Of a DNA stretch of 64,000 nucleotides, positions 9,705 to 52,391 are shown piece by piece. The first letter of the stretch is position 1. Every line of letters starts with the position of its first letter. Position numbers and translations under genes: made by a program. The DNA is from Blastocatellia bacterium (GTDB taxonomy: Bacteria > Acidobacteriota > Blastocatellia > RBC074), in the NCBI GenBank assembly GCA_043783625.1, contig JAYVZE010000017.1:2230-66229 (forward strand), in the 5' to 3' direction. The notes below the pieces were generated by a model. That model was not told the origin of the DNA and made no database searches. It saw nothing but the letters and a program-made list of their open reading frames with translations.

Positions 9705-9730
9705 CCGCCCTTACTGCGTGCGGCTTCTGC
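9705..9730. repeat. Orphan half-copy (right arm only) of REP family 1 (CCGCCCTTACTGCGTGCGGCTTCTGC).
   Basis: Matches the right arm of the hairpins at 14958-15029, 18678-18747 and 57014-57083. No left arm was found upstream. Confidence 0.45.
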
Positions 9731-9771
9731 ATTTTATAATTTCTGAAAGGTGTTGGAATTTTCCTGTAGCA

Positions 9772-11208: not shown

Positions 11209-11274
11209 CATTTGAAGTTAAAGATGACTAAAATTTCTACCAAAATAAATAAAACGAAAAAGCGAGGGATAGGG

Positions 11275-12883: not shown

Positions 12884-12947
12884 TTGTGTTTGAAGATTGG
12901 ACTTAAAACAATCAAAACTTATTAACCAAATTTCCTGGGGAGAAATT

Positions 12948-14399: not shown

Positions 14400-14502
14400 C
14401 GAAAATTTTTAGACAGGATTAACAAGATCAGTGAATTGGCTTCCTGTTCATCCTGAAGCAATCTTGTCAATCCTGTCTAAAATTGTTTTGAGTGAAAAAT
14501 TT

Positions 14503-36310: not shown

Positions 36311-39300
36311 TTACCGGATGATGACGGTGAAGCCGACTTCACCGGAATTATCCGGCGTAATCGAACTTAAATATCCTGCTGTTACTCGCCAGCGAACCGC
36401 TTTGACGTTGCGGTCATAATTCGTTGTTGTGCCACCGCCACCGTTGACAGGTGTGTACGTCCAGGTCGCTGCTGCTGGTGTTACCGAGTTATAATCATTT
36501 GAATATTCCACGACAATTGTCAGGCCAGTCGAACCCGGATCAGTGGTGACGGAGCCGATTTTAAAGTCCGTCACCAGTGGGATGGCATCAGTGAGGGTAA
36601 CTTGTTTCGCCAATGAACCTCCGGTGTTAGTGAACGTGATGCTATAAGTGAGTTCTGTTGCAGGCGGTTGTTCACCGGTTGGATTGACGGATTTGCGCAG
36701 TGTTAGACTTGGAGCGGTAACTGCACCGACCGTCACTGTAGTTGGATCAATAGTGGTTGCAATCGTCTGGGGAATTGAACCTACCGGGATTTTCATGTTA
36801 TATGGCGCAGAGGTCACTGTTGCAGACATATCAGAAGTTTGTCCGGCGTTATCAGTGTTAATTCCGGCGAGCGAGATAATGCTGCCGAACCCGGTCGCCT
36901 GATTTGCGATAGTTCCTGTGAATCCGGCATTCATCGTGACCGGAATCGTGATTGTGAATGCCCCGGTGATATTAAGGTTTGCTCCAGCGGCAATAAGATT
37001 ACTGAGCGCACCGCTGGCAGCTCCCGTATACGCTGGATTTTTACCACCGCCAGTTCCGCTGCCGGCGGCTAAGACTGTTTGTCCACCCGTCGTAGTGATG
37101 GTGATTCCAGTTGGAAGTTGATCGTTGATCTGGAAGTTCGTCACCAACGATCCAAGGTTAATATAGTGAATGGTGTAATTTAGTGTGTCGCCAGCCGAAA
37201 TACCTCCACTCGCATCAGCATCAGTGATGAGTTTGATGGATTTGTAAGCAGCAATATTGACCACAGGAGTGGATTCAAACGCACATCCCGCATTTGCAAC
37301 ACTGCCAGACGTATTTTCATTGGCGGCAGTGCAAGCAGTAATTGCGCCAGTGGTGGTGACAGTCGCTTTGTTCGGGTCGCCTCCACTAAAAACTTTCGCT
37401 TGATTGACGACATCAGTCGTGAGGGTGGCAGCGGCATTAATATTGAAAGCAAAGACGCTCGTGCCAGAGGTCGCAGCAATTGCCGTTGTGCTGGTACAGG
37501 TAATTGATTGTGGTGATATGGCGTCACTGTTACACGTCCAGTTGGCAGCTTGTGAGCCAGATAGAGTAACTAAGCCTGACGCCCCATTGTTGACGGTGAT
37601 GCCTGTTGGCAGCGTATCTTTAACGGAAGTCGTGCCGAACGTTACTCCGTTGCCGACATTGGTCACGGTCATCGTGTATGTCATGGATGCACCCGCTTGC
37701 ACTGAAGCAGGTGCAGTCTTCGCAAGCTTGAGGTCAGGCAATCCACTGACAATAAAAGTGGTCGCATCAATTGTTCCCGTAATGGTCTGGGCAACAGAGC
37801 CGGCAGGAATCGTTAAATTATAGGGCGCACTCGTCACCAGTGAAGGCAAGTCAACCGTTGTGCCTGCGTTATCGGACAGCACAGAGGAACTCAGAGCTGT
37901 CCCTGTCCCGCTTGCTTGATTGATAACTGTCCCGGAAAATCCAGTATTAACCCTGACCGGGATGGATACGGTAATCACTCCGCTTGCTGCGAGCGTTGCA
38001 CCTGATGCCAGGAGGTTGCTCACGGCGGCTCCGATTCCTCCGGTATACCCGGTATTGGCTGAAGCACTGGTTCCGCCGCCTGAAACCAGCACAGTTTGTG
38101 TTCCTGTGGCAGCGATGGAAATGCCTGCCGGAAGTAAATCAGTAATTTGGAAATTAGTGGAGTCGCCTGCTCCAGTGTTGGCGTATTGCAAGGTGTAAGT
38201 CAGGGTATCGCCTGCTGTAATTGTTCCACTACTATCCGCGTCAGTTGTGAGCTTGACCGATTTATAGGCAGTCACTAGCGGAAGGGCGACAATGGTGAGT
38301 GAATAGTCTTCGACTTCGCCGCTGGTGGCATTTCCAATGGAGGACTCGGCCTCCGCCTGGGTGTTGCTGAGGCGAAAGCGGGCATAAGTCGCGGCTGCTG
38401 TCATCCCTGCCGGAGTCGTGAAGCTGACATTTTGACTCCCCGAAGCAGTGACTATGACCGTCGCGGATTTCTCACCTGTATCAAGGAAATCACCGTCCTT
38501 ATTGAAGTCAATGTAACCGACCAGATACGACGTTCCCGACGGGTTGGTGACATTGACGGGAACTGTATATGTCTGTCCGGCTGTTGTGGTCAGCGCTGGA
38601 AAACTGGCGACACCATCTTCATCATCCGGGGTTCCGTTGTTGTCATCGCCGTTGGCTGCCACACTCGATTGTGCGCTCGACTCAGGATCAGGTCCTACAC
38701 TGCCAAGATAAGGAGCAGTTGGGATTAAGGTTGCCATCGTCAAACTGTTCACTGTCGTTGTCGTGGTCAGTTGCGAGCCGCCACTCGCAGTGCGCCGCGC
38801 ATAGTGATTAGGTGTGCCGAAGCTGGCCGGAGCATCTCCATAATCAAAGGGCGTCATGATTCCGAAGGCGACCGCTTGGCTTCCACCAGCGAGTACATTC
38901 ACGGAAATCTGATTGATATTTTGAGATAAAGCAAGAAGTGTTCCGCCACCGGTGTTGGTAAGGTCTTCTGTATAGAGAGTGCGTCCGCCATTAGAAAACT
39001 TTGCGGTTAAAACAGAACCCGGAGCTGCCTCAAGCGGTTGCCATGGAGTACCATCTGTCGTCCAGGTTAAGGATTCATTACTGTTACCCGTATCTTCTGC
39101 ATCGGCGGTTACAATATCGGCAGGGACAGCAACTCCATTGATGAGCACACTAAAACTAACATCGAAGGTGGGGTCTTCTGACGCCACAACGTTAAGTAAT
39201 CCGATTGGGTTAATCCCACCATACAAATCATCCAATTTGTCACCGCCCCAGTCCCCCACATTGTAAGGACGAATCGCTTTGGTAATATTCCTGATAGTGG

Positions 39301-40009
39301 CAGTGATAGTCGCTCCGGTGAGTGTCGTCCAGGTTTTTGTAATGGTATCTCCCGGATTAAATTGCGAAGTTGCGCCACAACTCCAATTCAACCAATAGAT
39401 ATTGTTGCGGTATACACCCGTACCAGATGGGGCAAGCACCGCAGTACCAGTCGGGCAGGTGAGTGATACAGGGGCTGCTGCCGGAGTGATGGAGGGAGCC
39501 AGAGCGCACGTAGTACAAGTGCCGGGAGCGACAGGCGTGCCAGTGGCTACCATTTCGAGCGAAGTGCCGCTTTGAAACATCGTCATCGCCGGAAAAATCT
39601 TAAATGGCGTAGTAAAGTTTTTCAGGTCAGGTGGAGGCATTGGTGCTTCGGAATTAGCCCTGAAATTGGTGGAGCGGTTCGCGGCAATCTTGGGTTCGCC
39701 TGTACTTTGCGTCATCCATTCATCAATGCCAATGGCTTTTTCTGCCATTGGCTTCGCTGCTTCCGCTGCTTTTGTTTCGATAGTTTTTGGCAGCCAGGAG
39801 CGGAACTTCGCCACGCCTCGCTGCGCAGTTGCTTCTGCGCCATGCACGAATGGCGTGGCATTAATGAGCATTGGCTGAATCAATAACAAGGTGACAATTA
39901 AGCGGTTGATGCTTTGTCGAAGTGATTCAGGTTTAGTGACCGCTACAAAAAATGAAAAAGTAAGTGAGACCGCACGGCGGCAAAGCAGAAGAGTGCTGGC
40001 TGAGTTCAT
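36311..40009 (-). CDS. Large secreted DUF11-repeat surface protein E (about 1,230 aa) with a GEVED-like domain and a distinctive C-terminal module.
   Basis: Signal-like 'LIVTLLLIQPMLINATPFVHGAEA'. 'YGDAPASFGTPNHY ... FNKDGDFLDTGEKS ... SGEVEDYSL' carries a literal GEVEDY motif. Several DUF11-type units ('AYKSVKL.TDAD.SG.I.AGDTL.YT', 'LP.GI'). C-terminus '...WTYTPVNGGGGTTTNYDRNVKAVRWRVTAGYLSSITPDNSGEVGFTVIIR'. ATG at 40009 preferred over TTG at 40030. Confidence 0.7.
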   Translation of the reverse strand: MNSASTLLLCRRAVSLTFSFFVAVTKPESLRQSINRLIVTLLLIQPMLINATPFVHGAEATAQRGVAKFRSWLPKTIETKAAEAAKPMAEKAIGIDEWMTQSTGEPKIAANRSTNFRANSEAPMPPPDLKNFTTPFKIFPAMTMFQSGTSLEMVATGTPVAPGTCTTCALAPSITPAAAPVSLTCPTGTAVLAPSGTGVYRNNIYWLNWSCGATSQFNPGDTITKTWTTLTGATITATIRNITKAIRPYNVGDWGGDKLDDLYGGINPIGLLNVVASEDPTFDVSFSVLINGVAVPADIVTADAEDTGNSNESLTWTTDGTPWQPLEAAPGSVLTAKFSNGGRTLYTEDLTNTGGGTLLALSQNINQISVNVLAGGSQAVAFGIMTPFDYGDAPASFGTPNHYARRTASGGSQLTTTTTVNSLTMATLIPTAPYLGSVGPDPESSAQSSVAANGDDNNGTPDDEDGVASFPALTTTAGQTYTVPVNVTNPSGTSYLVGYIDFNKDGDFLDTGEKSATVIVTASGSQNVSFTTPAGMTAAATYARFRLSNTQAEAESSIGNATSGEVEDYSLTIVALPLVTAYKSVKLTTDADSSGTITAGDTLTYTLQYANTGAGDSTNFQITDLLPAGISIAATGTQTVLVSGGGTSASANTGYTGGIGAAVSNLLASGATLAASGVITVSIPVRVNTGFSGTVINQASGTGTALSSSVLSDNAGTTVDLPSLVTSAPYNLTIPAGSVAQTITGTIDATTFIVSGLPDLKLAKTAPASVQAGASMTYTMTVTNVGNGVTFGTTSVKDTLPTGITVNNGASGLVTLSGSQAANWTCNSDAISPQSITCTSTTAIAATSGTSVFAFNINAAATLTTDVVNQAKVFSGGDPNKATVTTTGAITACTAANENTSGSVANAGCAFESTPVVNIAAYKSIKLITDADASGGISAGDTLNYTIHYINLGSLVTNFQINDQLPTGITITTTGGQTVLAAGSGTGGGKNPAYTGAASGALSNLIAAGANLNITGAFTITIPVTMNAGFTGTIANQATGFGSIISLAGINTDNAGQTSDMSATVTSAPYNMKIPVGSIPQTIATTIDPTTVTVGAVTAPSLTLRKSVNPTGEQPPATELTYSITFTNTGGSLAKQVTLTDAIPLVTDFKIGSVTTDPGSTGLTIVVEYSNDYNSVTPAAATWTYTPVNGGGGTTTNYDRNVKAVRWRVTAGYLSSITPDNSGEVGFTVIIR

Positions 40010-40297
40010 GTTGTACGTACCCCTACGCAAATAGACAGGGCTGAAAATCTAACGATGATGCATCCGAAGACTGTGGAATCGGAAAAACTGAAGTGGGAGA
40101 ATGAGGTAGCCGGATTAACTATGTCTTCAGGTTGGCGCCCGAAATGAGAGGTTGATGAACTACCCGTCCACTATCAAAAAAACATCGTATGAGTGAGCTG
40201 AGAAAGATTGTGAGTTGTTGACTACAGGGCTAAAGGCGAGAACAGTGTAATCAAAATGAAATAGATTGCAAGAAAAAATTTCAAACTGACCGAACCC

Positions 40298-40351
40298 ACG
40301 CTAAAGTAAATTACCTGATGCTAATGCATCAGGTAATTTACTTTAGCGTGA
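40298..40351. terminator. Intrinsic terminator hairpin downstream of gene D (25-bp perfect stem, 4-nt loop, T-tract on the minus strand).
   Basis: CACGCTAAAGTAAATTACCTGATGC taat GCATCAGGTAATTTACTTTAGCGTG. Confidence 0.65.
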
Positions 40352-40388
40352 ATCTATCAAGATAGTGAGTAGATATTTTTTGTAAGCG

Positions 40389-42836
40389 TTAACGAATTTT
40401 GACGGTGAAAGTGACATCGCCTGGAGTGCCTGAACTTAGGTTTCCAGCCGTTGTTCGCCATCGAATATGAGTAATATTTCGATCATAGTTGGAGGGCGCA
40501 CCTCCGGCTCCACTGGACGGGGTATACGTCCAGGTAACACCGCTATCGCTCGAATATTCAATGACGAAAGTCAATCCGGTGCTACCAACGTTGACGGCAG
40601 CGCCAGGGCTAACCTGATAATCGGTTGAGGTGGGGATCGGGTCAACGATTTGTACTTTCTGTGCGGCGACTCCACCGCTATTGGCAAAGGTAATTTTGTA
40701 ACTCAGGTCTGTTCCGGCTATCTGGTTGACAGTTTCGCACGTGGCGGGAGCGGTACAACTTTTGACCAAAGCGATTGCCGGAAGGCTTGAAATAATGACA
40801 TCTTCAGTGGTTGTTCCGGTGGCAGTTCCGTCATAATTTGAACCGCCCACACTGCCGGAGAAACTCCCGGTTTCATAGCTGGTATTGGTGGTGTAAGCCG
40901 TTCCTCCATTGGCTATACTGGTAGTTGCATTCGTGAACGGCTTCAGCACGCGGGCGGCAGTGGAACGGGTCGGATCAGCATAGGCAACGGTGGCCGGATT
41001 CTGATAAGTTCCATCGGCTGTCCCTGATGCAATATTGACCGTGAAGGTAATACTGACGGTTCCTCCGGCTGGAATATCAAGTGAATCCCAATGCAATGAT
41101 GTAGCAGCGGCAGCGGGTTTTGTGGTTAGTCCTGCGAGCGTGGCTGCCGTGGTAGTGCCAGCCAGATAAACGCCAGTACTCGCGGTAAAAGTTCCTGCCG
41201 AAGCAAAGGTGAAACCTGAAGGTAAACGCAAATCTGAAATACGAACAGCCTTCGCTGTGCCTGCTGTTGCGGCATTCGCCACTTGAATCGTGTAAGTCGC
41301 GGTTCCACCGGAAGGGAAGGGACCAGGCGTAGAAGTTGATTTTGTGACGGTCAGGGAAGGTAAGCAGCCTGCGCCTGAGGCTGTGCCCGTCGTTGTGACG
41401 GAAGCAGTTGTGACTCCATTTGTGCCATCAGCAGCTCCGTAGCTTTTGGGAGTCGTACTTCGATCCAGACCCGCAACGCCTTTAGTAACATTGGTCGAAA
41501 CTCCACCGTTAGCCGCGATAAATCCGCCGCCGCCGCCGCCGCCAGGGCCGTGTTCGAAATATCCTGAGCGACCACCGTTGCCCCCTTTAGCATTTGCGCT
41601 CAGACCACTTGTACCATTCGCTGACGAGATAGTGATGCTGCCGCCTGCGCCGCCGCCGCCGCCAGAATCAGTTTGACCTGAGGCAGGTAAGTCTAACGCA
41701 GCATTACCATTTGCATTAATCGTTCCACTTCCAGTGATTGCTCCGGCTCGGATTAATACAAGACCTCCGCCGTTTCCTCCACCCATGAGATACTCGTTGC
41801 CTGATGCACCTGCCGTACTGTTATTGCCATCACCAGCACCGCCGCCGCCGCCCATCACGATTTGTGAGCTTGAAGCCAGGAATGCTGAGCCTCCAAAACC
41901 GCCCTGAGCGAATCCATTGGGAGGGTTATTGGCAGCGATATTATTATGCCAGTTATTTCCGCCTATCCCGCCCGTGCCGCCATTAGCGCCGCCGCCGCCG
42001 CCGGCATTCAACCCATTATCTACGTTTGGCGCATAATCATTGGAGCCGCCACCAGCATTACCTGGCGCACCACGTCCGATGCTGCCTCCAGTATAATTAT
42101 CCGCGCCTGTCGCAGCCGTAGTGCCACCGTTAACACTTAACGGTGTTCCTGCGATTCCTTCGCCCTTCATTCCGCTGAAAGTGCGAGACGAAAGATATAA
42201 ATAATCTCCAGTTGCAGAGGTGATGCTTGTATCGCCTGTTTTTTGCAGCCCTGCACCACCACGAAACCCTTGTCCTGAAACGTCAATTGTACCAGAGAAG
42301 GTTAAAGTTCCAGTTGTGTCCAAAGCGACTACGCCGCCAGTCGTGCCATTCCAGACAGCGGCGGTGACAGTCCCGCTCACCGTGGCAGAGGAGTATTGCG
42401 GTACGCGAATGATTTGATAGGTTTGTCGGCTGGAAACGCTTTGCGTGTAGGTGTAGGTGAGAGAAGCCGCCAGCGTTAAGATCGAACCGGAGACCGTTTT
42501 GACGGTCGCATATTCATACCTGCCTGCGGCTGCATCTACGCCACTCCCATAAGAAGCAGAGTTTGAGAAGCTGACTCCGTTACCGCTTTGCATCTGCATC
42601 AGGATAATCAAATCGCCAACGGCAATGGCAGGTTTTGCCGCATCACGAATCGTCCCAAGTGTGACACTCGTACCTGAGGCCGTACTGGTTCCGGCATAGT
42701 AAGTATTGACGACACTCGTCAGGGTCGTGTTGATTCCATCTTTGCCGGGAGATGCACAAACCTGTGCGATGATCGGCATTGCCAGTAAAAATAAGAACAT
42801 TCCCACTGCGGCGAGAGCCTTGAATTTATTCCACAT
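40389..42836 (-). CDS. Secreted DUF11-repeat protein D (about 815 aa) with an approximately 200-aa Gly-rich beta-helix-like tract and the same C-terminal module as E.
   Basis: Signal 'MWNKFKALAAVGMFLFLLAMPIIAQ'. Gly-rich 'GGGGGANGGTGGIGG ... GGGGGAGGSITISSANG ... GPGGGGGGGF'. DUF11 units 'LTVTKSTSTPGPFPSGGTATYTIQVANA'. C-terminus '...WTYTPSSGAGGAPSNYDRNITHIRWRTTAGNLSSGTPGDVTFTVKIR'. Confidence 0.65.
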   Translation of the reverse strand: MWNKFKALAAVGMFLFLLAMPIIAQVCASPGKDGINTTLTSVVNTYYAGTSTASGTSVTLGTIRDAAKPAIAVGDLIILMQMQSGNGVSFSNSASYGSGVDAAAGRYEYATVKTVSGSILTLAASLTYTYTQSVSSRQTYQIIRVPQYSSATVSGTVTAAVWNGTTGGVVALDTTGTLTFSGTIDVSGQGFRGGAGLQKTGDTSITSATGDYLYLSSRTFSGMKGEGIAGTPLSVNGGTTAATGADNYTGGSIGRGAPGNAGGGSNDYAPNVDNGLNAGGGGGANGGTGGIGGNNWHNNIAANNPPNGFAQGGFGGSAFLASSSQIVMGGGGGAGDGNNSTAGASGNEYLMGGGNGGGLVLIRAGAITGSGTINANGNAALDLPASGQTDSGGGGGAGGSITISSANGTSGLSANAKGGNGGRSGYFEHGPGGGGGGGFIAANGGVSTNVTKGVAGLDRSTTPKSYGAADGTNGVTTASVTTTGTASGAGCLPSLTVTKSTSTPGPFPSGGTATYTIQVANAATAGTAKAVRISDLRLPSGFTFASAGTFTASTGVYLAGTTTAATLAGLTTKPAAAATSLHWDSLDIPAGGTVSITFTVNIASGTADGTYQNPATVAYADPTRSTAARVLKPFTNATTSIANGGTAYTTNTSYETGSFSGSVGGSNYDGTATGTTTEDVIISSLPAIALVKSCTAPATCETVNQIAGTDLSYKITFANSGGVAAQKVQIVDPIPTSTDYQVSPGAAVNVGSTGLTFVIEYSSDSGVTWTYTPSSGAGGAPSNYDRNITHIRWRTTAGNLSSGTPGDVTFTVKIR

Positions 42837-42863
42837 GTATTTGACCTGTCTGAATCCCGACAC

Positions 42864-43175
42864 GAACGCGAAGAAGGGAAGTCGTCGGACTCAGGATTAA
42901 TTTTGCAGCCGTTGTGAGACTTCAGTTGAACGCTGGAAGTCACGCCGCAAAGAACGCTAATGATAAAACTATCGAAGGATGTGAAGCTGGAGAAGCGACA
43001 TCAAATTCGATTTGGGATGGCAGCGAGTGAACAGAAAGAACGGATTATAAGAACGCGGAAACGCTGCCATGAACGCAAAAAAATAGAGACTCGAAGTGAA
43101 CGCTTTGATGATCGAGTAAAACTCTGATGTGACAGAAAGAACGAGATGGGGGAACTGTGAGAAAGAACGAAATTG
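42864..43175. promoter_or_regulatory. Upstream region of gene D with ten reiterated GAACG(C) motifs, including three copies of (C/G)AGAAAGAACG(A/G).
   Basis: GAACG on the plus strand at 42864, 42928, 42952, 43038, 43051, 43071, 43098, 43139, 43165 (plus AAACGC at 43059). About 0.3 expected by chance in 300 nt. Confidence 0.4.
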
Positions 43176-43210
43176 ACTTGTTAAGGAACCTGTCAAAAAT
43201 AAGATTAAAC

Positions 43211-43243
43211 GAATCCCCCTCCTGTTTCAGGAGGGGGATTCGT
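43211..43243. terminator. Hairpin terminator 4 nt downstream of the giant gene C (GAATCCCCCTCCTG tttc AGGAGGGGGATTC).
   Basis: 13-14 bp GC-rich stem. Confidence 0.65.
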
Positions 43244-43247
43244 AACT

Positions 43248-46200: not shown

Positions 46201-49200
46201 TTCGTGGCATTGACCTGCTCCGAAGAGAAACCATTGATCGGCTCGCTCCCTGCGCCAAGTAACGGGGAGCGAAGTTTTTCGACTTCTTCGTGGCTCAGTC
46301 CACGAAGTTTTGCGAGAGCTGTAAGGCAATCATTTTCTTCCTGCTTTGTTGCGAAGCTGCCGCGCTCGCAACGTTGACCGGAAAGTGCTGGAGGAGCTTC
46401 GACCGGATTGCCAGCCGCATCTTTGGCAGGTTCTTTGATTGCGACGGGAGAAGTATTAGAGTCAGTCAATCGCAGCAGGCGTCCCGCTGAGACTTGAATG
46501 CCAACTTGTCCACTGGCGGCTGGATTGCCCCATTGGTCAAAGCCTTTGACACGGACAATGGTTGAATCGCGCCCGCCGGATTGGACTTCTTTTTTATCCG
46601 TGACGATTTCCAGACGTGTGACCGGACCGCGTCCCATCACCGATAAATTCTGTGATTGAGCCGGAACTCCGTTTTGATCAACGGCAGTCACTTTAATTTC
46701 ATTTGGTCCCGGTTTCAGAACGATACCGACATACACAAAGGTGGCGATTTTATTTTTCTTGTCTACTTCTTTGACGCCGATGTTCGTTTCAGGAATACGC
46801 TCTCCGTTAACTTCCAGCGCGACCACGTAGTCCATGTGAACCCGCGCTTCGACGCGCAGCGCATTTTCCATAATGACTTCTTTGGCTTCCGGCGAAAGAA
46901 CTTTGATTTCTCCGGCAGCCACAGGTTCGATGTTGTCAGTGGAAATATCCGTATAGGTTCCAGGTGTGCGATAGCCTCCCTTACCGACATTCATCGCGGC
47001 TAATCCGGCGCGGGTTTTCGGGCCGCGGGCGCGACTCAGGACTCCATCCAAAGCACCACCGGAAGCAATGTCATTTTTTGAGCTGGCATTTTTTCGAGCC
47101 TTGCTCTGACGTGATCCGGCTTTACCTTTGACTTTATTTTCATCCGACTTTTCAGCTTCGGCTGCTTCCGCTGTCGGTTTGGCCGGAGCACCTGCCACAG
47201 GTTTGGCAGGTGCCGCAGGAGCACCCGCAATACCTGGTGCGCCGGGCGCACCCGGAGCACCCGCTGCAACGCCAGCAAAGACTCCGGTTTCAACGCCGCC
47301 TTCAATGTCGGTCACAGCTTCCGTGATGGGGTTGCGCGTTTTTTCCAGCACAAAGTTTTGACGATTCAATCCGCCGCCGCCAAGTGGAGTGCGAACCAGA
47401 CGAGTCCAACTGCGATGTGCTTTAAGCTTGCTATCCAGCAAACCATAGCCGCGCGGGACGGTGAATGGATCAAGGGTCAGCGAGGTTGCACCTTCTTCAA
47501 TGGAAGGGAAGTTATACATTCCCTTGGAATCAGTGATAACTGAAGTACCATTGTTAAGATACACGCGAACACCCGCGACAGGGCGATCACATTTTTCGAA
47601 TAATCCGTTCCCGTTCGTGTCTTCAAAGACGCGCCCGATGATGATCTGACGCATTGAGAACTGCCCCATTCCAACTAAGACGGGAGCTTTTACGGCTGGT
47701 GTCGTGATGGGATCACCGTTAGGATAAACTCCTGTCGCTACCACCGAATTGACTTGTTCCCCTTGTTTGGCATTAGCACCGACGCGCAAGCGATAGGTGA
47801 CGGTGACTCTGCCGCCGCCCGCTAAATCTCCAATATTAAAAACCATCTGATTGTTGGACACAGTCGGCTCGATAGCAAAGGCAGGTGTGCCATCAACTTG
47901 TACCCGCGCTGTACCGGGGACATAGCTAAAAGAGAGCGGTAAAGTGTCTCTCAATTGAACGGCAGTGAATTTCTGCGCCGTAGAATTTTGTGCTTCGAGA
48001 CGATACGAAATCATTTCGCCAATTTCTGCTCGCTGCTTATCAGCGACTTTCGTCAACTGCAAGGTAGTTGTCTCAAACATTGGGATATTCAAAACCACTG
48101 CGGCAATATCGAAGAGGGAAACATTTGTATTTGAAAGTTTGAAGCTGCCAGCCTGTGAAATCGGCTGTCCGTCGGCTGAAATTACATCAACGGTGTAAAG
48201 ATCAGGATTGGTTGGGCTGGGCTGAATTTTTATTTCAACCAGACGCGAACGATAGCCTTGTGCTGCGACATTGACGAAATACGTGACAGGCGCACCGGGG
48301 GCACCGACCTGATTGGCTCCCAGGGTAAAACTGAAGTGACCCTGAGCATCAGTCGTGAACGGATTACTATTCGTCGGGTTCGGATCAAATCCACCTGTCG
48401 GAACAGGTAATAAATTCAGTCCATCTTTGTCTGTGGTCAAAGTGACTTTCGCATTGGGGATCGGTACCGAGCCATTGCTGTATCCGGCATAAACTGTTCC
48501 CACCGGATTAATCACGACTTTGGTTTTTGAGGTTTTTATGGCAGTTCCGATGTTATCGCCAGAGACTTGCGCCGTATTAATAATCCCCACTCCGGGAATA
48601 ACGTTGTCATTCAGCTTCGCCTGAAAAGTGACAGAAACAATTTGATCTGGATCAACTTTCGCTAATTTGATCTCAAGGCGACGACCATTAATAATCTGGC
48701 CTTCGTCAGTATCGCTGATATCGGTCAGTGAAGTTGTTCCCAGTTTCAGTGTTCCCGACACATAATCAATTTGAGCCGGAAGATCATCAGACAATAAAAT
48801 ATTAATCGCTGGAACCTGACCACGATTTCGGAAACTGATGGAATAGGTCACGACACTACCCGCCGTAGAAGTAAATTGATCCTTGTTTTCGACTAATTTA
48901 ATTGGCGGTAAAGAAGGATTAGCGGGGTCCGTAATTCTCGCTGGCTCTCCGGTTTTGCTGATGATGGTTCCGTCGTCTTTTTGTGGGCCATTGTTGCTGG
49001 GCGCGTTTGTTTTGACAGTAATCCCAATCGTGACAGGATCATCTTTAGCGACGTTGCCTGTGTCAATGACGGCGAGAATTCCAATACATTCACCGGGAGG
49101 AATTGTCGGGCTGGCAGTTTGATTCAACGTGATGGCAAGATCCGCTGGAGTTACTGTCCCGCTGCCGTCAATGTCCCAATACATCGCAACCAATGAAGAA

Positions 49201-49556
49201 GGCGTAGAAACTGTACTACGGGTGAGGGTAAAGGTATCAGGCGTATTTCCGATGTTGCAGGCGCGGAACACACGTGTCACGGTCTCATTTGCTAAAACTA
49301 CCCCGGAAGATTGTGGATCATCTGGAGTGACAACGATTCCAGTAATCGCCACAACTGTAATTGAGACGATGGGAGAAGAAATCACAAAGTCTTTGCCGCT
49401 TGGATCTTGATAGCTTGCGCGGGCCTGGTTTTTGATGACGACTCCGGCGGAGATGCCACCTGTGACGGGAGTTGCTTCCTTTTGTGCGATGGCTGAAGTC
49501 GCACCGGCTGCAATTAAGACCGCAAAGATGAGGTAGGTGTTAATAAGTCTAAGCAT
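43248..49556 (-). CDS. Giant outer-membrane/surface protein C (about 2,100 aa). Domain order: signal, DUF11 and Cna-B/carboxypeptidase-regulatory-like repeats, Pro/Ala-rich linker, Ig-like (Big) domains, C-terminal beta-barrel-like region of about 900 aa, Thr/Pro/Ala tail.
   Basis: Signal 'MLRLINTYLIFAVLIAAGATSAIAQ' from ATG at 49556 (TTG 49595 is an alternative). 'VIKNQARASYQDPSGKDF' DUF11 end-motif. 'GVRVYLNNGTSVITDSKGMYNF' Cna-B-like. Linker 'AGAPGAPGAPGIAGAPAAPAKP' near 47.1-47.3 kb. The last approximately 900 aa (nt about 43350-46060) show alternating hydrophobic strands that often end in aromatic residues ('LRLGFTDER', 'VSLGYDYRTF', 'LDAGYERGMHL', 'LYGRYALKF', 'AELRLAKFF', 'AEVGFWAL', 'LAGGYNFTRM', 'GFYFVVSSKLSNMFNLF'). 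Confidence 0.75.
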   Translation of the reverse strand: MLRLINTYLIFAVLIAAGATSAIAQKEATPVTGGISAGVVIKNQARASYQDPSGKDFVISSPIVSITVVAITGIVVTPDDPQSSGVVLANETVTRVFRACNIGNTPDTFTLTRSTVSTPSSLVAMYWDIDGSGTVTPADLAITLNQTASPTIPPGECIGILAVIDTGNVAKDDPVTIGITVKTNAPSNNGPQKDDGTIISKTGEPARITDPANPSLPPIKLVENKDQFTSTAGSVVTYSISFRNRGQVPAINILLSDDLPAQIDYVSGTLKLGTTSLTDISDTDEGQIINGRRLEIKLAKVDPDQIVSVTFQAKLNDNVIPGVGIINTAQVSGDNIGTAIKTSKTKVVINPVGTVYAGYSNGSVPIPNAKVTLTTDKDGLNLLPVPTGGFDPNPTNSNPFTTDAQGHFSFTLGANQVGAPGAPVTYFVNVAAQGYRSRLVEIKIQPSPTNPDLYTVDVISADGQPISQAGSFKLSNTNVSLFDIAAVVLNIPMFETTTLQLTKVADKQRAEIGEMISYRLEAQNSTAQKFTAVQLRDTLPLSFSYVPGTARVQVDGTPAFAIEPTVSNNQMVFNIGDLAGGGRVTVTYRLRVGANAKQGEQVNSVVATGVYPNGDPITTPAVKAPVLVGMGQFSMRQIIIGRVFEDTNGNGLFEKCDRPVAGVRVYLNNGTSVITDSKGMYNFPSIEEGATSLTLDPFTVPRGYGLLDSKLKAHRSWTRLVRTPLGGGGLNRQNFVLEKTRNPITEAVTDIEGGVETGVFAGVAAGAPGAPGAPGIAGAPAAPAKPVAGAPAKPTAEAAEAEKSDENKVKGKAGSRQSKARKNASSKNDIASGGALDGVLSRARGPKTRAGLAAMNVGKGGYRTPGTYTDISTDNIEPVAAGEIKVLSPEAKEVIMENALRVEARVHMDYVVALEVNGERIPETNIGVKEVDKKNKIATFVYVGIVLKPGPNEIKVTAVDQNGVPAQSQNLSVMGRGPVTRLEIVTDKKEVQSGGRDSTIVRVKGFDQWGNPAASGQVGIQVSAGRLLRLTDSNTSPVAIKEPAKDAAGNPVEAPPALSGQRCERGSFATKQEENDCLTALAKLRGLSHEEVEKLRSPLLGAGSEPINGFSSEQVNATNRQQIISLENGEALVELVGEGQPGNAEIRAFSGELKVQRDIRFTPEMRPQILVGLAEASFGKAAPEVALRGGDKNYNHHVEFFYRTPLIKQAQLTLAYNSYRALTRTAGRDRSFFLDPLDRVYPIFGDSSTRFEDAQSNSKLYARIDKGRSYAMFGDFNANQQEYINNGFTPTPLTNLAENLASSGIGNSIINNFNSVPVFAAQGPQLTGYSRRLTGVKIHLESEGGSSITVTGARPDTAFARDVFPGSSFGLIRLSHTDVLQGTETVMREVRDRRNPDIILQREVLVRSVDYNIDPYLGSIYFMRPLSAFDYALNLVQVVTTYEYRSVAMNSAVYTARGSKNFSRMGLRVGTSFIDQRQENYGSFYLGGVDVEKKIGKSGTFQFEWGMSNGRVASTGSYFGYDGLAGSLNSGNGEHNGNAFRAEYRQPLNFAEAQLQASFGKSDQSFFNPFGSTVSPGSQRGTVALDFKPRPSMQMRLGFTDERNKTATFNNTRQTGSVGLIKSFGDKLRVSLGYDYRTFTDSSGSVLANQANTNADTNGTAGTTTPATANSFAGRSVTSNLVTAGAEYRPTGKLQISVKREQNVGTADPSYPDQTTIAASYQVSSLAKIFFTQRLASQAISAISDLSSTGFAETASRRETAIGVESPLSKYTTMSGRYQINNGINGTDSFAVVGLMNRFPLSKTFSLDAGYERGMHLKGNGQSFNNAMFGASYNPTDSFHSAARYELRDLNGFGNIFTVGAAGKLSASFTTLGRFQYSRTAFQNQNNEMMNGQLAASWRPLESDRAAMLFSYTHRSINQSAVSSFASTRDRDDILAADGLYQPLRRLELYGRYALKFGSNGSANLPLASTMTMLLQGRAELRLAKFFDVAGEVRSLWLSGVSSRRFSAGAEVGFWALSDLRLAGGYNFTRMTENAGYFGGFDSRGLNTRKGFYFVVSSKLSNMFNLFGTSREGLVGNEPIQSPSATTPAATPAPATPAPENK

Positions 49557-49754
49557 AAAATGTGCCGAACCCTTCTTCTCTAGTTTGTAAATCAATCGTA
49601 AGTCAGTAGTTTCAAATCAATGAATTCGGGAACCGGAATTCTGGGTTGCTGAAATAAACGCTTCAGTGTGACGCTTCGGGTGGCAATCGGGTGGCTGAGA
49701 TAGATTGCGGAAGCGTACGTGTTTAAGCGAAAGTTTCAAGCTTTGGTTATTAAG

Positions 49755-49792
49755 AGAAAGCAGGTTGGCTCAGGCGAGCCAACCTGCTTTCT
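49755..49792. terminator. Hairpin terminator downstream of gene B (AGAAAGCAGGTTGGCT caggcg AGCCAACCTGCTTTCT).
   Basis: 16-bp stem, located 15 nt after the stop of 49808-51352. Confidence 0.6.
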
Positions 49793-49807
49793 GAGCAATG
49801 ATCAAAA

Positions 49808-51352
49808 TTAAGGTTTGATCTTACGGGTGAAAGTCAGTGTTCCGACTTTGGTTCCAGCTAATGTTCCAATGCTGGCAACGTATTTGGCTTGCGCCACTGC
49901 ACCTGTGCTGGCGCTAACGACCGGCACTACTACCGTTCCATCATTGTTGGCAGCTTCACCTGCCACGTAGTTGGTGGCTCCGGCCCAGTTATTAGCACCG
50001 GCATCACCATCTTCAGTGATGACGACTAATTGCGCAGGAAGATCAACGCTGCCTGATCCTGTCGGAGCAGCCGAAACGTTGGTGGCAGTCACGGTGTACT
50101 GAATGTCAGCGCCTGGAACCGGATCAGTCGCTGCACCAACGCCAGTGGCGTTGACAACGGTAGCTGTTTTCAAGAGCCTCAGATAACCGGGGAACAGACG
50201 ATCAATCGTGTTATTGGTAATCAATGGATCCATTACTGAACAGACCGTGATGACGGTGTCATAACCAGCTTCGGTAACAACTCCGGTAGGAAGTGTGACG
50301 CGAACCTTATAGTTCAGACTTGAACCCGCTGCGACCGCCGCAGTGGTGACCATTGGTGTCGCAGTTGGTGCACCGGCTAAAACAACAGTCGTGTAAGTTG
50401 CACCGCCATCAATGCTGATTTCGACGGTTGATCCGGCTGGATAAGTACCAGCACCAGTGGCAGGTTTAATCGTGAATGTTTCCGGGCCGTTGCCAGAGTT
50501 CTTCAAAGTATTATCGAAGACAGTTGGAGTCGTCGGAGCATTTGGATCAACCGCTTTATTGGTGTAATCCGTATTCAGGTTCGCTGGCGCAGCACCTGGA
50601 CCTGTGGCGTTTGGCGCACCATTTGGACCATTCTGAACCATTGGCACGTTGCTGACATTTAGTACTACCGCACCCTTGGCTTCTTTTTCAGGGCCGGTGA
50701 TCGTAATGCCTCCCGGTGCGCTGGTCGAAACTTCATGTATCGACGAATCCTTAGTTTGGTTGTCAAACCCAGTGCCTGTGGTGGTATCGCCGAGTGAAAC
50801 GGTGAGGGCTGCACCTGCAATGGCGGCTGTGTCAACTGTGACAGTGACGACAACCTTTTTGGTTGCGCCCTGGGCAATCAATTGATCTACTGCGGCGGCA
50901 TTGCCCAGGATGTCAATGTCGCCAGCACCAAATGTGCCGTTGCCATCGTTATCAATGAACGCTGAGGCTACGGTTCCAGGCCCGCTGAGCTGAACACTTG
51001 CACCACTTGGCAGGAAGTGAGCGTTGTTCGAGAAGTTGCCCAGATTGTTGACATCGAATGTAAAGGTTGCCGTTGAACCGGGTGCCGGTGTTGGCGCACC
51101 AGTAGCAGGTGCTGTCTGATCCGGTGTGATCGACAAGCCGGCGACATACGCGACAGTGGTGACGACTTCATTCGATGTCGTGTTGTACTTTAATGGAGTT
51201 AACGGATCGTCTGTATAGGTCGCGGACGCTTTGTTTTTGATTTGTGTTCCGCCAGCGGTTGCAGTTGATTGTGCAAGTGCGGAAGTAGCTAACGAGGCGA
51301 GGACAACAGCGCCGATCAGCACCTTTCCCCAAATATTAATTTTGCTCTTCAT
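49808..51352 (-). CDS. Secreted DUF11-repeat protein B (514 aa) with Thr/Ala/Pro-rich segments.
   Basis: Signal 'MKSKINIWGKVLIGAVVLASLATSALAQ'. 'IKNKASATYTDDP ... SNEVVTTVAYVAG' DUF11 end-motif as in C. AGGAG Shine-Dalgarno upstream of the ATG. Confidence 0.6.
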   Translation of the reverse strand: MKSKINIWGKVLIGAVVLASLATSALAQSTATAGGTQIKNKASATYTDDPLTPLKYNTTSNEVVTTVAYVAGLSITPDQTAPATGAPTPAPGSTATFTFDVNNLGNFSNNAHFLPSGASVQLSGPGTVASAFIDNDGNGTFGAGDIDILGNAAAVDQLIAQGATKKVVVTVTVDTAAIAGAALTVSLGDTTTGTGFDNQTKDSSIHEVSTSAPGGITITGPEKEAKGAVVLNVSNVPMVQNGPNGAPNATGPGAAPANLNTDYTNKAVDPNAPTTPTVFDNTLKNSGNGPETFTIKPATGAGTYPAGSTVEISIDGGATYTTVVLAGAPTATPMVTTAAVAAGSSLNYKVRVTLPTGVVTEAGYDTVITVCSVMDPLITNNTIDRLFPGYLRLLKTATVVNATGVGAATDPVPGADIQYTVTATNVSAAPTGSGSVDLPAQLVVITEDGDAGANNWAGATNYVAGEAANNDGTVVVPVVSASTGAVAQAKYVASIGTLAGTKVGTLTFTRKIKP

Positions 51353-51511
51353 CTATACTCCTGATTGAGTTCTGAAGTTGATATTTATAGCTAGGCGGAT
51401 TTTTAGTAATCCGCCAGCCTCCTACGGCGAGAAAAGGCACTATCCACAGGGGATGCACCGAAGTAGCGTTGTGAGAACAACTGCCACTGATTGGGCTTCA
51501 AGCCGGGTCAA

Positions 51512-52036
51512 TTACTTGACGCGAACTTTGTATGAAGCCGAAAATTGCTTACCTTCAGTAAGCGGGTCATTCCATTCGTAGCGAATCCGGGTGTACATAG
51601 AAACGGGTGCTGCTACTTTTTTGGTTGAGCCGTCAGGTTGCTTTTGGTCAATCATTGGCTTTTCATCGAAGGTTTTACCGTCATCAATGCTGTAAACGAT
51701 TTTGACACTGCCTTCTGCTTTGGCACTGCTGGCAACGTAGGCTGTCCCGGTCGGAATTTCACCAACGGTTTTGTAATTTTGGGCGGGAGTCGTTCCCGCA
51801 TTCATGGAGGTGATCGTCCAGTTCAAAACTTCGCCGGGGTTCAGGTTGCCGGCTTTTTCAACATCGACAGGTTTGTTTTCGCGGGTCACTGTTCCCAGTA
51901 AGGAAATTTTGACATCCGGGCGAACGAGCGTAGCGATGGCGTTAGCAATCGAATTGCGTTGTGCAAAAGCACTGCCAGCGACAACGAATAACGCGATTAA
52001 AGTGATCGAAGATAATTGTGATTTAAGGTTTTTCAT
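51512..52036 (-). CDS. Small secreted single-DUF11-domain protein A (174 aa).
   Basis: Signal 'MKNLKSQLSSITLIALFVVAGSAFAQ'. 'PGEVLNWTITSMNAGTTPAQNYKTVGEIPTGTAYVASSAKAEGS' fits the DUF11 core (G..v.Y.itv.N.G...A.nv.v.d.lP.G...v). Confidence 0.6.
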   Translation of the reverse strand: MKNLKSQLSSITLIALFVVAGSAFAQRNSIANAIATLVRPDVKISLLGTVTRENKPVDVEKAGNLNPGEVLNWTITSMNAGTTPAQNYKTVGEIPTGTAYVASSAKAEGSVKIVYSIDDGKTFDEKPMIDQKQPDGSTKKVAAPVSMYTRIRYEWNDPLTEGKQFSASYKVRVK

Positions 52037-52391
52037 GGGCTTCAGTCCTTGAGGTTGAGTTATAAATTTTCATCGGCGCATCCGCGTTGGATTTGCCCGT
52101 TAGGTGGGGGGCTGACTAGCGCTTGTGCAGTGTTGGCACAGCGGCTCGATATAAGTCTTACAACTTCTGTGCCATACTTTTGAGGCAGTCTGTGACGTGG
52201 CTAACTTGCCAAATGAATGAATTTGCAGGATTCGAGTGAAATCTGGTCAAATTGCTGAAGTGACGGAATTCGGCAAAAACGGCTGACAGTAATTGTTGCG
52301 GTCAGGCTTTCTCAAAGTTGGAAGTACTCGCCTTTATGAAAGCTTACCCGTATAATCATTTGTTCCTGATAACTTTGAATTTAATGATGTT

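Follow-up and report, generated by a model that had tools for sequence, protein, structure and literature searches.

The window, by which is meant the whole stretch of 64,000 nucleotides that was analyzed, comes from a soil acidobacterium and contains five consecutive minus-strand genes, termed A to E. Their open reading frames and translations were recovered at the coordinates reported in the initial annotation, with longer alternative starts also available for C, D, and E (Table 1). Inspection of the translations revealed textbook Sec signal peptides ending in AxA/Q in A, B, C, and D. The claim of a signal peptide in all five products therefore holds for these four, whereas E starts with a long, atypical pre-sequence that contains two hydrophobic stretches and is kept in another of the loci (L006). 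All five proteins had been described as built on repeats of DUF11, a domain now named CLIPPER. The Pfam DUF11 threshold was passed by C, D, and E, and A, which fell slightly below it (23.1 bits; cut-off 24.6), passed the NCBIfam model TIGR01451 (30.6; cut-off 24), consistent with a DUF11-type module. B gave no DUF11 match in Pfam or NCBIfam, and our own HMMs located DUF11/CLIPPER pieces at its two ends only, so the description does not extend to this protein. Within the window, the CLIPPER modules and the tags described below are confined to these five genes.

A divergently transcribed LolA gene is present at the edge of the block, as had been noted, but it adjoins the cluster in the closest clade only (9 loci), and a link with LolA is not supported. 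In Pyrinomonadaceae loci, the upstream genes encode a histidine kinase, a sigma-54 activator, and a small response regulator. In agreement with the initial annotation, Pfam scans of 35 ORFs of the window gave no match to a sortase, T9SS, or chaperone-usher gene, and the cluster genes encode neither an energy source nor a chaperone.

Searching species-representative genomes with a profile of the barrel of C returned 297 loci, the best 80 of which were nearly all labeled Blastocatellia, Pyrinomonadaceae, or unclassified Acidobacteriota. In species-representative Blastocatellia and Pyrinomonadaceae genomes, the order A, B, C on one strand was observed at all 59 loci that had 6.6 kb or more of upstream sequence. 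At least one further gene with a D/E-type C-terminal catcher module lay downstream of C at 56 of 56 loci with at least 3 kb of downstream sequence. The length of A homologues is also conserved (160-177 aa). Because gene order and strand are conserved in ∼60 species, the five-gene block is a conserved cluster and not a chance run of paralogues. This synteny bears out the proposal of an uncharacterized, conserved cell-surface assembly module, of which no description was found in the literature that could be searched.

Table 1. Genes, protein regions, and transcription signals of the A-E cluster (window coordinates)
Feature	Nucleotides	Strand	Residues	Remarks
Gene A	51512-52036	-	174 aa ORF	
A catcher	51515-51961	-	26-174	lone catcher after signal peptide 1-25 (AFA/QR); ends ...SYKVRVK
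Gene B	49808-51352	-	514 aa ORF	
B tag	51137-51271	-	28-72	QSTATAGGTQIKNKASATYTDDPLTPLKYNTTSNEVVTTVAYVAG; mature N-terminus; includes isopeptide Asn40
B catcher	49811-50218	-	379-514	ends ...FTRKIKP
Gene C	43248-49595	-	2115 aa from TTG	2102 aa from ATG at 49556
C tag	49338-49484	-	38-86	QKEATPVTGGISAGVVIKNQARASYQDPSGKDFVISSPIVSITVVAITG; mature N-terminus, right after signal peptide 14-37 (AIA/QK)
C stalk	46929-49337	-	87-889	Pfam, NCBIfam, and own HMM matches
C Ig-like domains	46071-46928	-	890-1175	invasin/intimin Big_1 type; adjoin barrel
C outer-membrane beta-barrel (predicted)	43371-46052	-	∼1182-2075	about 36-38 predicted strands
C barrel insert	45291-45563	-	1345-1435	beta domain
Gene D	40389-42863	-	824 aa	815 aa from ATG at 42836
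D catcher	40392-40796	-	690-824	ends ...FTVKIR
Gene E	36311-40030	-	1239 aa	1232 aa from ATG at 40009
E catcher	36314-36733	-	1100-1239	ends ...FTVIIR
Hairpin after B	49755-49792			perfect stem, 17 bp
Hairpin after C	43209-43243			perfect stem, 16 bp; 5 nt beyond C stop codon
Hairpin after D	40297-40350			perfect stem, 25 bp
Sigma-54-type promoter-like motif	52160-52174	-		TGGCAC-N5-TTGT; ∼125 nt upstream of A start codon

A strong hairpin behind every gene, and with it five independent transcription units, had also been proposed. Perfect stems were found after B, C, and D, but the stem after A is of 8 bp only and that after E of 11-12 bp, and most of the hairpins lack a T tract. In relatives, hairpins recur at one intergenic position only, that after B, where stems of 10 bp or longer were present at 6 of 11 close loci and at 34% of the rest (background, 3%). 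Hairpins after C in close relatives differ in sequence, and intergenic gaps in relatives are of ∼100 nt or are replaced by gene overlaps. Because T tracts are mostly missing, only the post-B hairpin recurs, and gaps are this short, an operon with internal attenuators or stabilizers fits better than five separate units. Among close relatives, 8 also have the sigma-54-type motif at 94-147 nt before A, against a background frequency of 0.002 per 350 nt; no such motif was found in the majority of Pyrinomonadaceae loci.

The term catcher is used here for a CLIPPER domain that stops just before its last two strands; such domains make up the whole of A after its signal peptide and the C-termini of B, D, and E. 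When aligned to an HMM of 143 positions built from 211 complete internal CLIPPER domains from these loci, the A and B catchers end at positions 99-100, with 1 to 4 residues remaining in the protein. The C-terminal module of D and E is shared, as first described (BLASTP 1e-28), but is not private to this pair, since residues 61-174 of A match it with an hhalign probability of 97.4%. The same module subtype, with the pattern YSxDGGxTWxYTP...IRW...FxVxV, occurs as complete tandem domains in P0367, an unrelated protein of 6381 aa, where each is followed by a short loop, VxSNTA, and SNTVxTTI. On a cis-domain HMM built from four P0367-type copies (176 positions), all A and D/E-type catchers end at position 123. 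These alignments show the catchers to be truncated just before the last two predicted CLIPPER strands.

The term tag is used for the converse element, the last two CLIPPER strands, including the isopeptide Asn, placed as the mature N-terminus of B and C. Across 60 genomes, B tags aligned to positions 106-140 of the complete-domain HMM with a median of 11.5 bits, and 52 of 60 exceeded 8 bits compared with 0 of 60 reversed or shuffled controls. C tags aligned to positions 105-140 (median, 9.0 bits), with 42 of 62 above 8 bits and 0 of 61 for shuffled controls. Residues I38, N40, and A42 of the B tag are invariant, and the tag Asn coincides with the isopeptide Asn of the HMM. At modest scores of 9-12 bits, the profile matches show the N-terminal tags of B and C to correspond to the predicted two strands that the catchers lack.

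Joining a native tag to the B catcher gave a gain of 11-12 bits in 95-98% of genomes, whereas controls lost 1-2.5 bits. On the cis-domain HMM, catchers joined to a native tag aligned across the junction to positions 161-167, with gains of +5.6/+6.0 bits for A and small gains of +3.3/+2.8 bits for D/E-type catchers, compared with about -1 to +2 bits for reversed or shuffled tags. The Pfam DUF11 match of the D chimera lengthened from 7-81 to 7-103, and four CLIPPER-type Pfam models gained about 5 to 6.6 bits (reversed tag, -1.8 to +2); the E chimera gave mixed Pfam scores. In a direct-coupling analysis of 175 B sequences (effective number 62), tag-catcher couplings were not enriched.

The residues of an isopeptide triad are conserved. 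The tag Asn is present in 62 of 63 B and 63 of 66 C sequences, and the catcher Lys in 60 of 61 A (Lys43), 61 of 63 B (Lys395), and 76 of 80 D/E-type sequences, such that Lys is kept in 95-98% of catchers versus 64% (135 of 211) of internal CLIPPER domains. The acidic residue is Glu in 60 of 63 B proteins (Glu447) and Asp in 77 of 80 D/E-type proteins; the canonical acid position of A is occupied by Gly in 58 of 61. Given that Asn is nearly invariant across CLIPPER domains generally (210 of 211), its conservation in the tags is little specific to bond formation, and the absence of the catalytic acid places A outside a purely covalent scheme.

Protein C combines its tag with a stalk and a C-terminal region that had been described as beta-barrel-like, and which is indeed predicted to form an outer-membrane barrel. 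The stalk starts with a B-like first domain (residues 87-205) and contains two complete CLIPPER domains, at residues 228-362 and 508-645, with a CarboxypepD_reg/SdrD_B-like region between them. The corresponding own-HMM matches at 233-376 and 518-651 are in stop-to-stop ORF numbering, the origin of which lies 7 residues before the TTG. An SdrD_B domain (residues 655-717) and a low-complexity Ala/Pro/Gly/Lys-rich linker read from the translation (residues 760-889) complete the stalk. The highly conserved insert interrupts the barrel after roughly five strands and contains, in the window sequence, the motifs TGARPDTAFARDVFPG and EVRDRRNPD, the second of which ends in NPE in the family consensus; a Pro/Thr/Ala tail extends beyond the barrel. 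That the predicted barrel anchors a CLIPPER stalk is shown by locus L002, where a gene split by an apparent frameshift joins 20 CLIPPER domains to a barrel of this type.

B, the only protein with both tag and catcher, consists of a signal peptide, the tag, three Ig-like domains (DUF7925 type in relatives), and the C-terminal catcher. It has no Pfam match itself, and its homologues carry PF25546. The AF2 model of B has a pLDDT of 88.4 and a pTM of 0.74, a high value for four domains in one chain, with pLDDT values of 82-92 in the tag strands. In D, the signal peptide is followed by a Gly-rich AgmC_N-like domain (residues 40-454; 158 bits, under the cut-off of 275), one complete CLIPPER domain (residues 498-650), and the catcher. 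In E, the pre-sequence precedes CshA_NR2 (residues 209-392), GEVED (residues 502-578), three complete CLIPPER domains (residues 588-1081), and the catcher. This domain order is that of a fibrillar adhesin of Acinetobacter silvestris (PMC12617251), but E has no membrane anchor. Catcher-only proteins have variable heads (beta-helix, AgmC-like, or CshA_NR2/GEVED) and 0-9 stalk domains, and the sole tag-only protein is the membrane anchor C.

The balance of probability tips, if modestly, toward A to E being parts of an outer-membrane-anchored modular fibrillar adhesin joined by strand complementation and probably locked by Lys-Asn bonds. C would form the base of such an external fibre, with its barrel in the outer membrane and the N-terminus of its stalk exposing a free tag. 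The tag of one protein may enter the catcher of another and complete the CLIPPER fold by donor-strand complementation; the tag Asn would then adjoin the catcher Lys and acid, and a spontaneous Lys-Asn isopeptide bond could lock the joint. A polar chain would result, running from C (tag only) through one or more copies of B (catcher and tag) as connector or shaft to A, D, or E (catcher only) as interchangeable caps or tips. The functional N-terminal domains of D and E would lie at the far end, D bringing its AgmC-like Gly-rich domain and E its CshA_NR2 and GEVED adhesin head, and passage of the subunits across the outer membrane may be enabled by the large barrel and the conserved domain inserted in it. 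A, a bare catcher without the catalytic acid, more probably serves as a cap held non-covalently or as a protector of tags in the periplasm. Of the envelope fibre, sheath, or S-layer-like structure suggested initially, the place of C as an outer-membrane barrel component is retained. The other proteins are no longer seen as stoichiometric or accessory subunits, since the match of truncated C-terminal domains to orphan N-terminal strands points to a specific role for each.

The evidence for strand exchange comes from sequence, and the variable N-terminal cargo on a constant C-terminal Ig-like module could also mean that A, B, D, and E end in a complete, or almost complete, export or attachment signal that the barrel of C recognizes. 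The module would then play a part like that of the C-terminal domain in T9SS cargo, and the adhesins would be secreted or surface-attached separately, without strand exchange. This reading is unlikely, but the very large barrel, which is in the size class of SprA, and the lack of a chaperone gene in the cluster are consistent with it. Resemblance to a strict chaperone-usher-like pilus, with C as a divergent usher, A as the major pilin or chaperone, and subunits joined at the periplasmic face solely through non-covalent donor-strand exchange, may be seen in the incomplete Ig folds of the subunits, the small product of the first gene, the lack of a catalytic acid in A, and a post-B hairpin that could set stoichiometry. 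The beta domain after about five barrel strands likewise recalls the usher plug. Such a pilus is nevertheless considered very improbable.

Slightly more doubtful than a C-terminal export signal is a conserved operon of paralogous Ig-repeat adhesins and one barrel-anchored adhesin that are co-regulated and physically separate, with the tags folded back within their own chain, onto its first domain, and with a stable short variant of the fold as the C-terminal modules. Residues 3-187 of B and 1-179 of C align with an hhalign probability of 99.3%, which makes tag and first domain one conserved unit of ∼180 aa; AF2 modeled B confidently in the absence of a partner, and the tag of B could pack on its own first domain; and no tag-catcher covariation signal was found. 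Yet the post-tag domain is not CLIPPER by sequence, although the tag shows homology with CLIPPER strands 8-9, and the strict order and co-occurrence at all 59 and all 56 loci argue for physical partnership. E, moreover, has an adhesin head and stalk with no anchor of its own, unlike the A. silvestris adhesin.

For the modular fibre that is favored here, the joining of split domains, in which two strands of one protein complete the domain of another, would be new for CLIPPER/DUF11. The proposed tag-catcher joint would resemble SpyTag/SpyCatcher in its spontaneous isopeptide locking. For BsaA (PMC11580942), it has been demonstrated that an N-E-K isopeptide triad locks donor-strand exchange, and for archaeal thread filaments, both donor-strand complementation and isopeptide bonds have been reported.

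Five consecutive minus-strand open reading frames, designated A to E from upstream to downstream, are present where the initial annotation had placed them. Inspection of the sequence reveals that A to D carry classical signal peptides with an AxA↓Q ending. E opens with a long pre-sequence containing two hydrophobic stretches ahead of the probable cleavage site, which is kept in the closest relative (locus L006) and recalls the extended signal peptides of large autotransporters. All five products had been described as DUF11-repeat proteins, and this holds for four of them: PF01345 gave 68.5, 36.5, and 42.1 bits with C, D, and E, respectively (cut-off 24.6 bits), A was borderline (23.1 bits, below that cut-off) and passed TIGR01451 (30.6 against a cut-off of 24), and B had no DUF11 match in Pfam (PF01345) or NCBIfam (TIGR01451). 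DUF11 has been renamed CLIPPER, a domain of CnaA-like fold that forms an Asp-catalyzed Lys-Asn isopeptide bond and builds the stalks of fibrillar adhesins (PMC12617251). In addition, Pfam and NCBIfam scans identified a CshA_NR2 plus GEVED head in E, and D contains an AgmC_N-like glycine-rich domain that scored 158 bits, short of the equivalog threshold (275).

Coordinates of the features described in the 64,000-nucleotide window
Feature	Position	Strand	Remarks
A	51512-52036	-	ORF, 174 aa
B	49808-51352	-	ORF, 514 aa
C	43248-49595	-	ORF, 2115 aa if started at TTG; residue 14 is the ATG chosen in the initial annotation
C linker	46929-47318	-	residues 760-889; ~130 residues, Ala/Pro/Gly/Lys-rich; parts the CLIPPER stalk from the barrel-adjacent Ig domains
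C beta-rich insert	45291-45563	-	residues 1345-1435; most conserved stretch of the barrel family; follows about five barrel strands
D	40389-42863	-	ORF, 824 aa
E	36311-40030	-	ORF, 1239 aa
E pre-sequence	39830-40030	-	residues 1-67
Sigma-54-type motif TGGCAC-N5-TTGT	52160-52174	-	~125 nt before A; conserved in position in 8 close relatives
Type II restriction-modification pair	11212-12883	+	N6/N4 DNA methylase and EcoO109I-like endonuclease
Two ORFs without a Pfam match	12897-14399, 14431-14952		follow the restriction-modification pair
Metallopeptidase protein	4251-9611	+	1786 aa; M36 fungalysin metallopeptidase, TIG, and Kelch beta-propeller domains
BACON-domain protein	59376-63854	-	1492 aa; probable surface type; five BACON domains; no tag or catcher
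SBBP-repeat protein	1024-3885	-	953 aa; probable surface type; DUF7948 and SBBP beta-propeller repeats; no tag or catcher

The flanks of the window encode housekeeping or unrelated functions, namely RNase J, LolA, a HAD hydrolase, a ROK kinase, gyrB, ftsY, and a restriction-modification pair, the last lying between a Mur-ligase-family gene and a recF-like/gyrB region. Pfam scans of 35 window ORFs bore out the reported absence of sortase, T9SS, and chaperone-usher genes, and no tRNA genes or Rfam matches were found in the window. A role for the neighboring LolA-like carrier, which the initial annotation had pointed out at the upstream edge, was rejected because its gene adjoins the cluster in only 9 close relatives.

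Homologues of the last 920 residues of C are confined almost exclusively to Pyrinomonadaceae and other Blastocatellia. A scan with the barrel alignment, limited to one genome per species, yielded 297 loci, of which the best 80 were fetched, and parts of the five proteins were compared by BLAST with all ORFs of the fetched loci. These loci display one order on one strand: A (~175 aa), B (540-750 aa), C (1860-2140 aa, a stalk fused to the barrel), and then one (54 loci) or two (12 loci) further genes, referred to here as tip genes. A followed by B was found upstream of C in 59/59 loci having at least 6.6 kb of upstream sequence, and a gene ending in the C-terminal module of D and E was found downstream of C in 56/56 loci having at least 3 kb downstream. 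The scattering of orthologues by which the initial annotation would have recognized a chance run of paralogues was thus clearly not found, and the five genes very probably constitute one conserved functional module. In one locus (L005), a D-like gene has been relocated upstream on the opposite strand.

The tip proteins vary in their N-terminal parts, and all end in the D/E C-terminal module. Clustering of the N-terminal parts collapsed to a single cluster because of shared stalk repeats and was replaced by Pfam scans of ten tips, which revealed beta-helix, AgmC-like, or CshA_NR2/GEVED heads together with 0-9 complete stalk domains; among the scanned tips, the CshA_NR2/GEVED head occurred in the nearest relative only. 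No source checked gave a functional name for any member of the A, B, or barrel families, and no published description of this five-gene system was found in the literature searched.

In profile comparisons, A and the C-termini of D and E proved to be one and the same module (97.4% probability), and the first ~180 residues of B and C proved homologous (99.3% probability). In A, B, D, and E alike, the C-terminal module breaks off just past the strand '...G....[VI]x[FY]xVx[IV][RK]'. Mature B and C open with 'I-x-N-x-A-x-A-x-Y ... S-N/P-x-V-x-x-T-V', which resembles the two strands that would come next in the fold. The truncated C-terminal modules (A 26-174, B 379-514, D 690-824, and E 1100-1239) are referred to here as catchers and the two-strand N-termini as tags. 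An initial hhalign comparison of short tag profiles with a single internal domain was not significant (E 0.16-0.6) and was superseded by a larger HMM with controls, built from 211 complete internal domains of the loci and comprising 143 positions. The tags alone aligned at positions 105-140 of this HMM, with the tag Asn on the isopeptide Asn of the model. The B tags had a median score of 11.5 bits, with 52/60 above 8 bits, and the C tags a median of 9.0 bits, with 42/62 above that value. No shuffled tag and no reversed B tag exceeded 8 bits; reversed C tags did so in 13/62 cases, but elsewhere on the model. A and B run out at HMM positions 99-100 in their most C-terminal alignments, with 1 and 4 residues remaining. 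With a native tag joined to it, the B catcher scored 11-12 bits higher in 95-98% of genomes and aligned as far as position 140, and the controls lost 1-2.5 bits.

Exhaustive searching of representatives with the catcher profile gave 10,604 matches, mostly giant tandem-CLIPPER proteins. Six proteins contained the full-length module ending exactly at the C-terminus, and one protein of 6381 aa (P0367) had a full-length internal match. This giant protein contains tandem complete copies of the A/D/E catcher subtype. Its domains carry the subtype motif YSxDGGxTWxYTP...IRW...FxVxV, and each copy continues in the same chain with a short loop, 'VxSNTA', and 'SNTVxTTI'. On a cis-domain HMM built from four P0367 copies (176 positions), all A and D/E-type catchers ended at 123/176, and addition of the native tag carried the alignment across the junction to positions 161-167. 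The associated gain was +5.6/+6.0 bits for A and +3.3/+2.8 bits for D/E-type catchers, compared with about -1 to +2 bits for the controls. The Pfam models gave a similar picture for the D catcher joined to a tag, for which DUF11 coverage extended from 7-81 to 7-103 and four CLIPPER-type models gained ~5 to 6.6 bits (reversed tag, -1.8 to +2). Pfam alignments of A plus tag and of B plus tag also spanned the junction, and the equivalent E chimera gave mixed results.

No enrichment of tag-catcher couplings emerged from mean-field direct coupling analysis of 175 B sequences (effective number 62), at a depth too shallow for the purpose and in a comparison that is uninformative if the partners of the B tag are other proteins. 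In an AlphaFold2 model of B (pTM 0.74), the tag strands were predicted with pLDDT values of 82-92; this confidence is compatible with, but does not prove, docking of the tag into the catcher of the same B molecule. Overall, it is reasonably probable that tags and catchers pair via strand complementation.

The isopeptide triad of CLIPPER domains (Lys on strand 1, Asp or Glu, and Asn on strand 8) is present as K-D-N inside one domain in 119/211 internal complete domains, and in the terminal modules it is divided between two polypeptides. The tag Asn, N40 in B of the window, is present in 62/63 B and 63/66 C proteins. Given that Asn is near-invariant in all CLIPPER domains (210/211), its conservation is no specific evidence for a bond. 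Higher retention of the catcher Lys is the more informative signal in these alignments: it is found in 60/61 A, 61/63 B, and 76/80 D/E-type catchers (95-98%), as against 135/211 internal complete domains. In the window proteins, it is K43 of A, K395 of B, the Lys of ALVKSC in D, and the Lys of TLRKSV in E. At the acid position, 77/80 D/E-type catchers have Asp and 60/63 B catchers have Glu. A lacks the acid and has Gly there in 58/61 sequences. This residue pattern fits an intermolecular Lys-Asn isopeptide lock in B and the D/E-type proteins and a non-covalent role for A. That the joint is in fact locked by a covalent bond is a tentative proposal, with the chances at or slightly below even.

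An AlphaFold2 model of residues 985-2115 of C, computed with 79 homologues, had a pLDDT of 72 and a pTM of 0.67, and DSSP assigned ~36-38 long beta strands to it; with this number of strands, C would join the largest known single-chain outer-membrane barrels. DUF2490, a Pfam family of unknown function, was weakly matched by 7/16 barrel-family members, and neither the barrel profile nor B matched any PDB sequence. The conserved insert of C contains the motifs TGARPDTAFARDVFPG and EVRDRRNPD, the second ending NPE in the family consensus, and matches neither Pfam nor PDB sequences. Its position recalls that of the plug in fimbrial ushers, and it may serve as a plug or gate. Beyond the final barrel strand comes a Pro/Thr/Ala tail. 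In a more distant relative (locus L002), 20 complete CLIPPER domains precede the same barrel type in a single protein, which indicates that this barrel type anchors CLIPPER stalks. At this locus (2670-13558, a long-read metagenome assembly), the two called genes of 2376 and 1185 aa look like one ~3600-aa gene; the first ends and the second begins mid-domain, an apparent assembly frameshift.

Perfect hairpins of 17, 16, and 25 bp follow B, C, and D, respectively, and shorter ones follow A and E. The initial annotation had taken these as delimiting five independent transcription units. This was not borne out, and a terminator role for the five was rejected, because most of the intergenic hairpins lack a T tract and only the hairpin after B recurs in relatives. 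A stem of at least 10 bp was found at that site in 6/11 close loci and 34% of the others, compared with 3% background. The recurring hairpin could raise A and B above C, a hint that would fit a repeated shaft subunit. Long hairpins of different sequence were also observed just past the C stop codon in loci L003 (24 bp, perfect) and L006, the position seen in the window, such that the structure is kept and the sequence is not. A sigma-54 promoter was rejected as a general feature because the motif upstream of A is kept only in the closest clade. In Pyrinomonadaceae, genes for a histidine kinase, a sigma-54 activator, and a small response regulator precede the cluster, where TGGCAC-N5-TTGT was mostly not found. 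Overall, the reading put forward in the initial annotation is supported as far as the conserved module is concerned and lacks support with respect to the LolA link, the five independent transcription units, and B as a DUF11 protein.

The distribution of tags and catchers suggests a minimal assembly scheme in which C would contribute only a tag besides the membrane barrel, B both a catcher and a tag, and A, D, and E a catcher only. The resulting chain would be polar, running from the C barrel and stalk through B (once or repeated) to a cap or tip, with the adhesive heads of D and E at the distal end. On complementation, the last strand of the tag would run on without a break into the following domain ('...VAGLSITPD'), as between the repeats of a tandem array, so that the assembled product would mimic one long adhesin such as the L002 protein. 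The B tag ends 'SN.V', resembling the cis domains of the A/D/E subtype, and the C tag has 'SP.V', a difference that makes a fixed C-B-tip order possible. Polymerization of B would be the alternative. Given its size, the C barrel could be wide enough to admit folded Ig domains, with the conserved insert as a possible gate. The broadest version of the scheme is an unrecognized outer-membrane pathway of Blastocatellia in which a ~36-38-strand single-chain barrel with a plug-like insert would be both anchor and translocon, the cassettes would self-ligate through a naturally split isopeptide domain to give sortase-free covalent pili in a diderm, and free A would be a reversible cap or chaperone. 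This full combination is rather unlikely.

Acidobacteria are abundant in soil and hard to culture, and their surface structures are little known. If the pairing of tags and catchers is true, it would explain long adhesins with swappable tips in this phylum. It would also represent the first natural isopeptide (CnaA/CLIPPER) domain found split between polypeptides for surface assembly and the first proposed sortase-independent covalent fiber in an outer-membrane bacterium. Protein engineering would gain new orthogonal tag/catcher pairs from it, and short peptides and small domains would allow the idea to be tested directly.

Several established systems share part of this architecture. Chaperone-usher pili (type 1, P, and CFA/I) likewise have incomplete Ig folds completed by the N-terminal strand of a neighbor (here a proposed completion), two-domain tips with a variable head and a constant C-terminal domain (pilin-like in the pili), an outer-membrane barrel with an inserted domain, and hairpins within the operon. 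The usher barrel has 24 strands with a plug, an N-terminal domain, and C-terminal domains. By contrast, the barrel protein described here itself bears a long stalk and the putative donor strand, two strands rather than one are missing, the fold is CnaA-like rather than that of a pilin, and the joint may be covalently locked. Membership was rejected because 35 scanned window ORFs include no PapD-like chaperone (PF00345 or PF02753) and no Usher (PF00577) match. C resembles autotransporters and inverse autotransporters (type V) in having an N-terminal passenger-like stalk and a C-terminal barrel, and the invasin/intimin-like Big_1 domains adjoining its barrel recall invasin and intimin themselves. 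However, the C barrel is ~3 times larger (~36-38 predicted strands versus 12), the domain order is the reverse of that in intimin, and the absence of a PF03797 or PF11924 match led to rejection of this class. Sortase pili were rejected because no LPXTG-type signal and no sortase were found in the window; the C-termini read YKVRVK (A), FTRKIKP (B), FTVKIR (D), and FTVIIR (E). Three of the proteins (C, D, and E) match TIGR04226, which reflects no more than the CnaA-like fold they have in common with that family. Type IX secretion was rejected on the absence of a T9SS sorting domain and of SprA, PorV, and GldKLMN genes from the window. SpyTag/SpyCatcher likewise pairs a short strand tag with a truncated catcher, and these reconstitute and cross-link spontaneously (PMC6539128). 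They are laboratory constructs derived from a Gram-positive adhesin CnaB domain, whereas the split proposed here would be natural, CnaA-like, and used for assembly.

The closest mechanistic precedents are the "exchange and lock" fibers of BsaA and the archaeal thread filaments. In BsaA, a TasA-family protein of Clostridium perfringens, an N-terminal strand carrying Asn is proposed to enter the sheet of the next subunit, where a Lys and an acidic residue of the acceptor form an intermolecular isopeptide bond with it (PMC11580942). Donor-strand complementation together with isopeptide bonds is also reported for the thread filaments (PMC9715654). The present proteins would follow this arrangement, with Asn on a putative N-terminal donor strand, Lys in the catchers, and the acid in B and D/E-type catchers but not in A. 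BsaA and thread filaments have a TasA/camelysin or thread-subunit fold rather than the CnaA-like CLIPPER fold, with no sequence relationship between the two. They are homopolymers of monoderm bacteria or archaea that have no outer-membrane barrel and no separate base, connector, and tip, and they involve a SipW-type peptidase; Pfam and NCBIfam scans gave no match to a TasA/camelysin-like fold or the SipW signal peptidase family.

By homology, the nearest relatives are single-chain CLIPPER fibrillar adhesins, the survey of which covers intramolecular bonds only (PMC12617251). B9T28_05395 of Acinetobacter silvestris (PMC12617251; PDB 9IFR) resembles E in having a CshA_NR2-like head, GEVED, and a tandem CLIPPER stalk, and it shares the Lys/Asp/Asn triad; in the present system, C provides the stalk and the outer-membrane anchor. 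B9T28_05395 is a single polypeptide with an OmpA-like anchor. Here, in contrast, head, stalk, and anchor are on separate proteins, the protein ends each correspond to half of a CLIPPER domain, and a predicted barrel of ~36-38 strands serves as the anchor.
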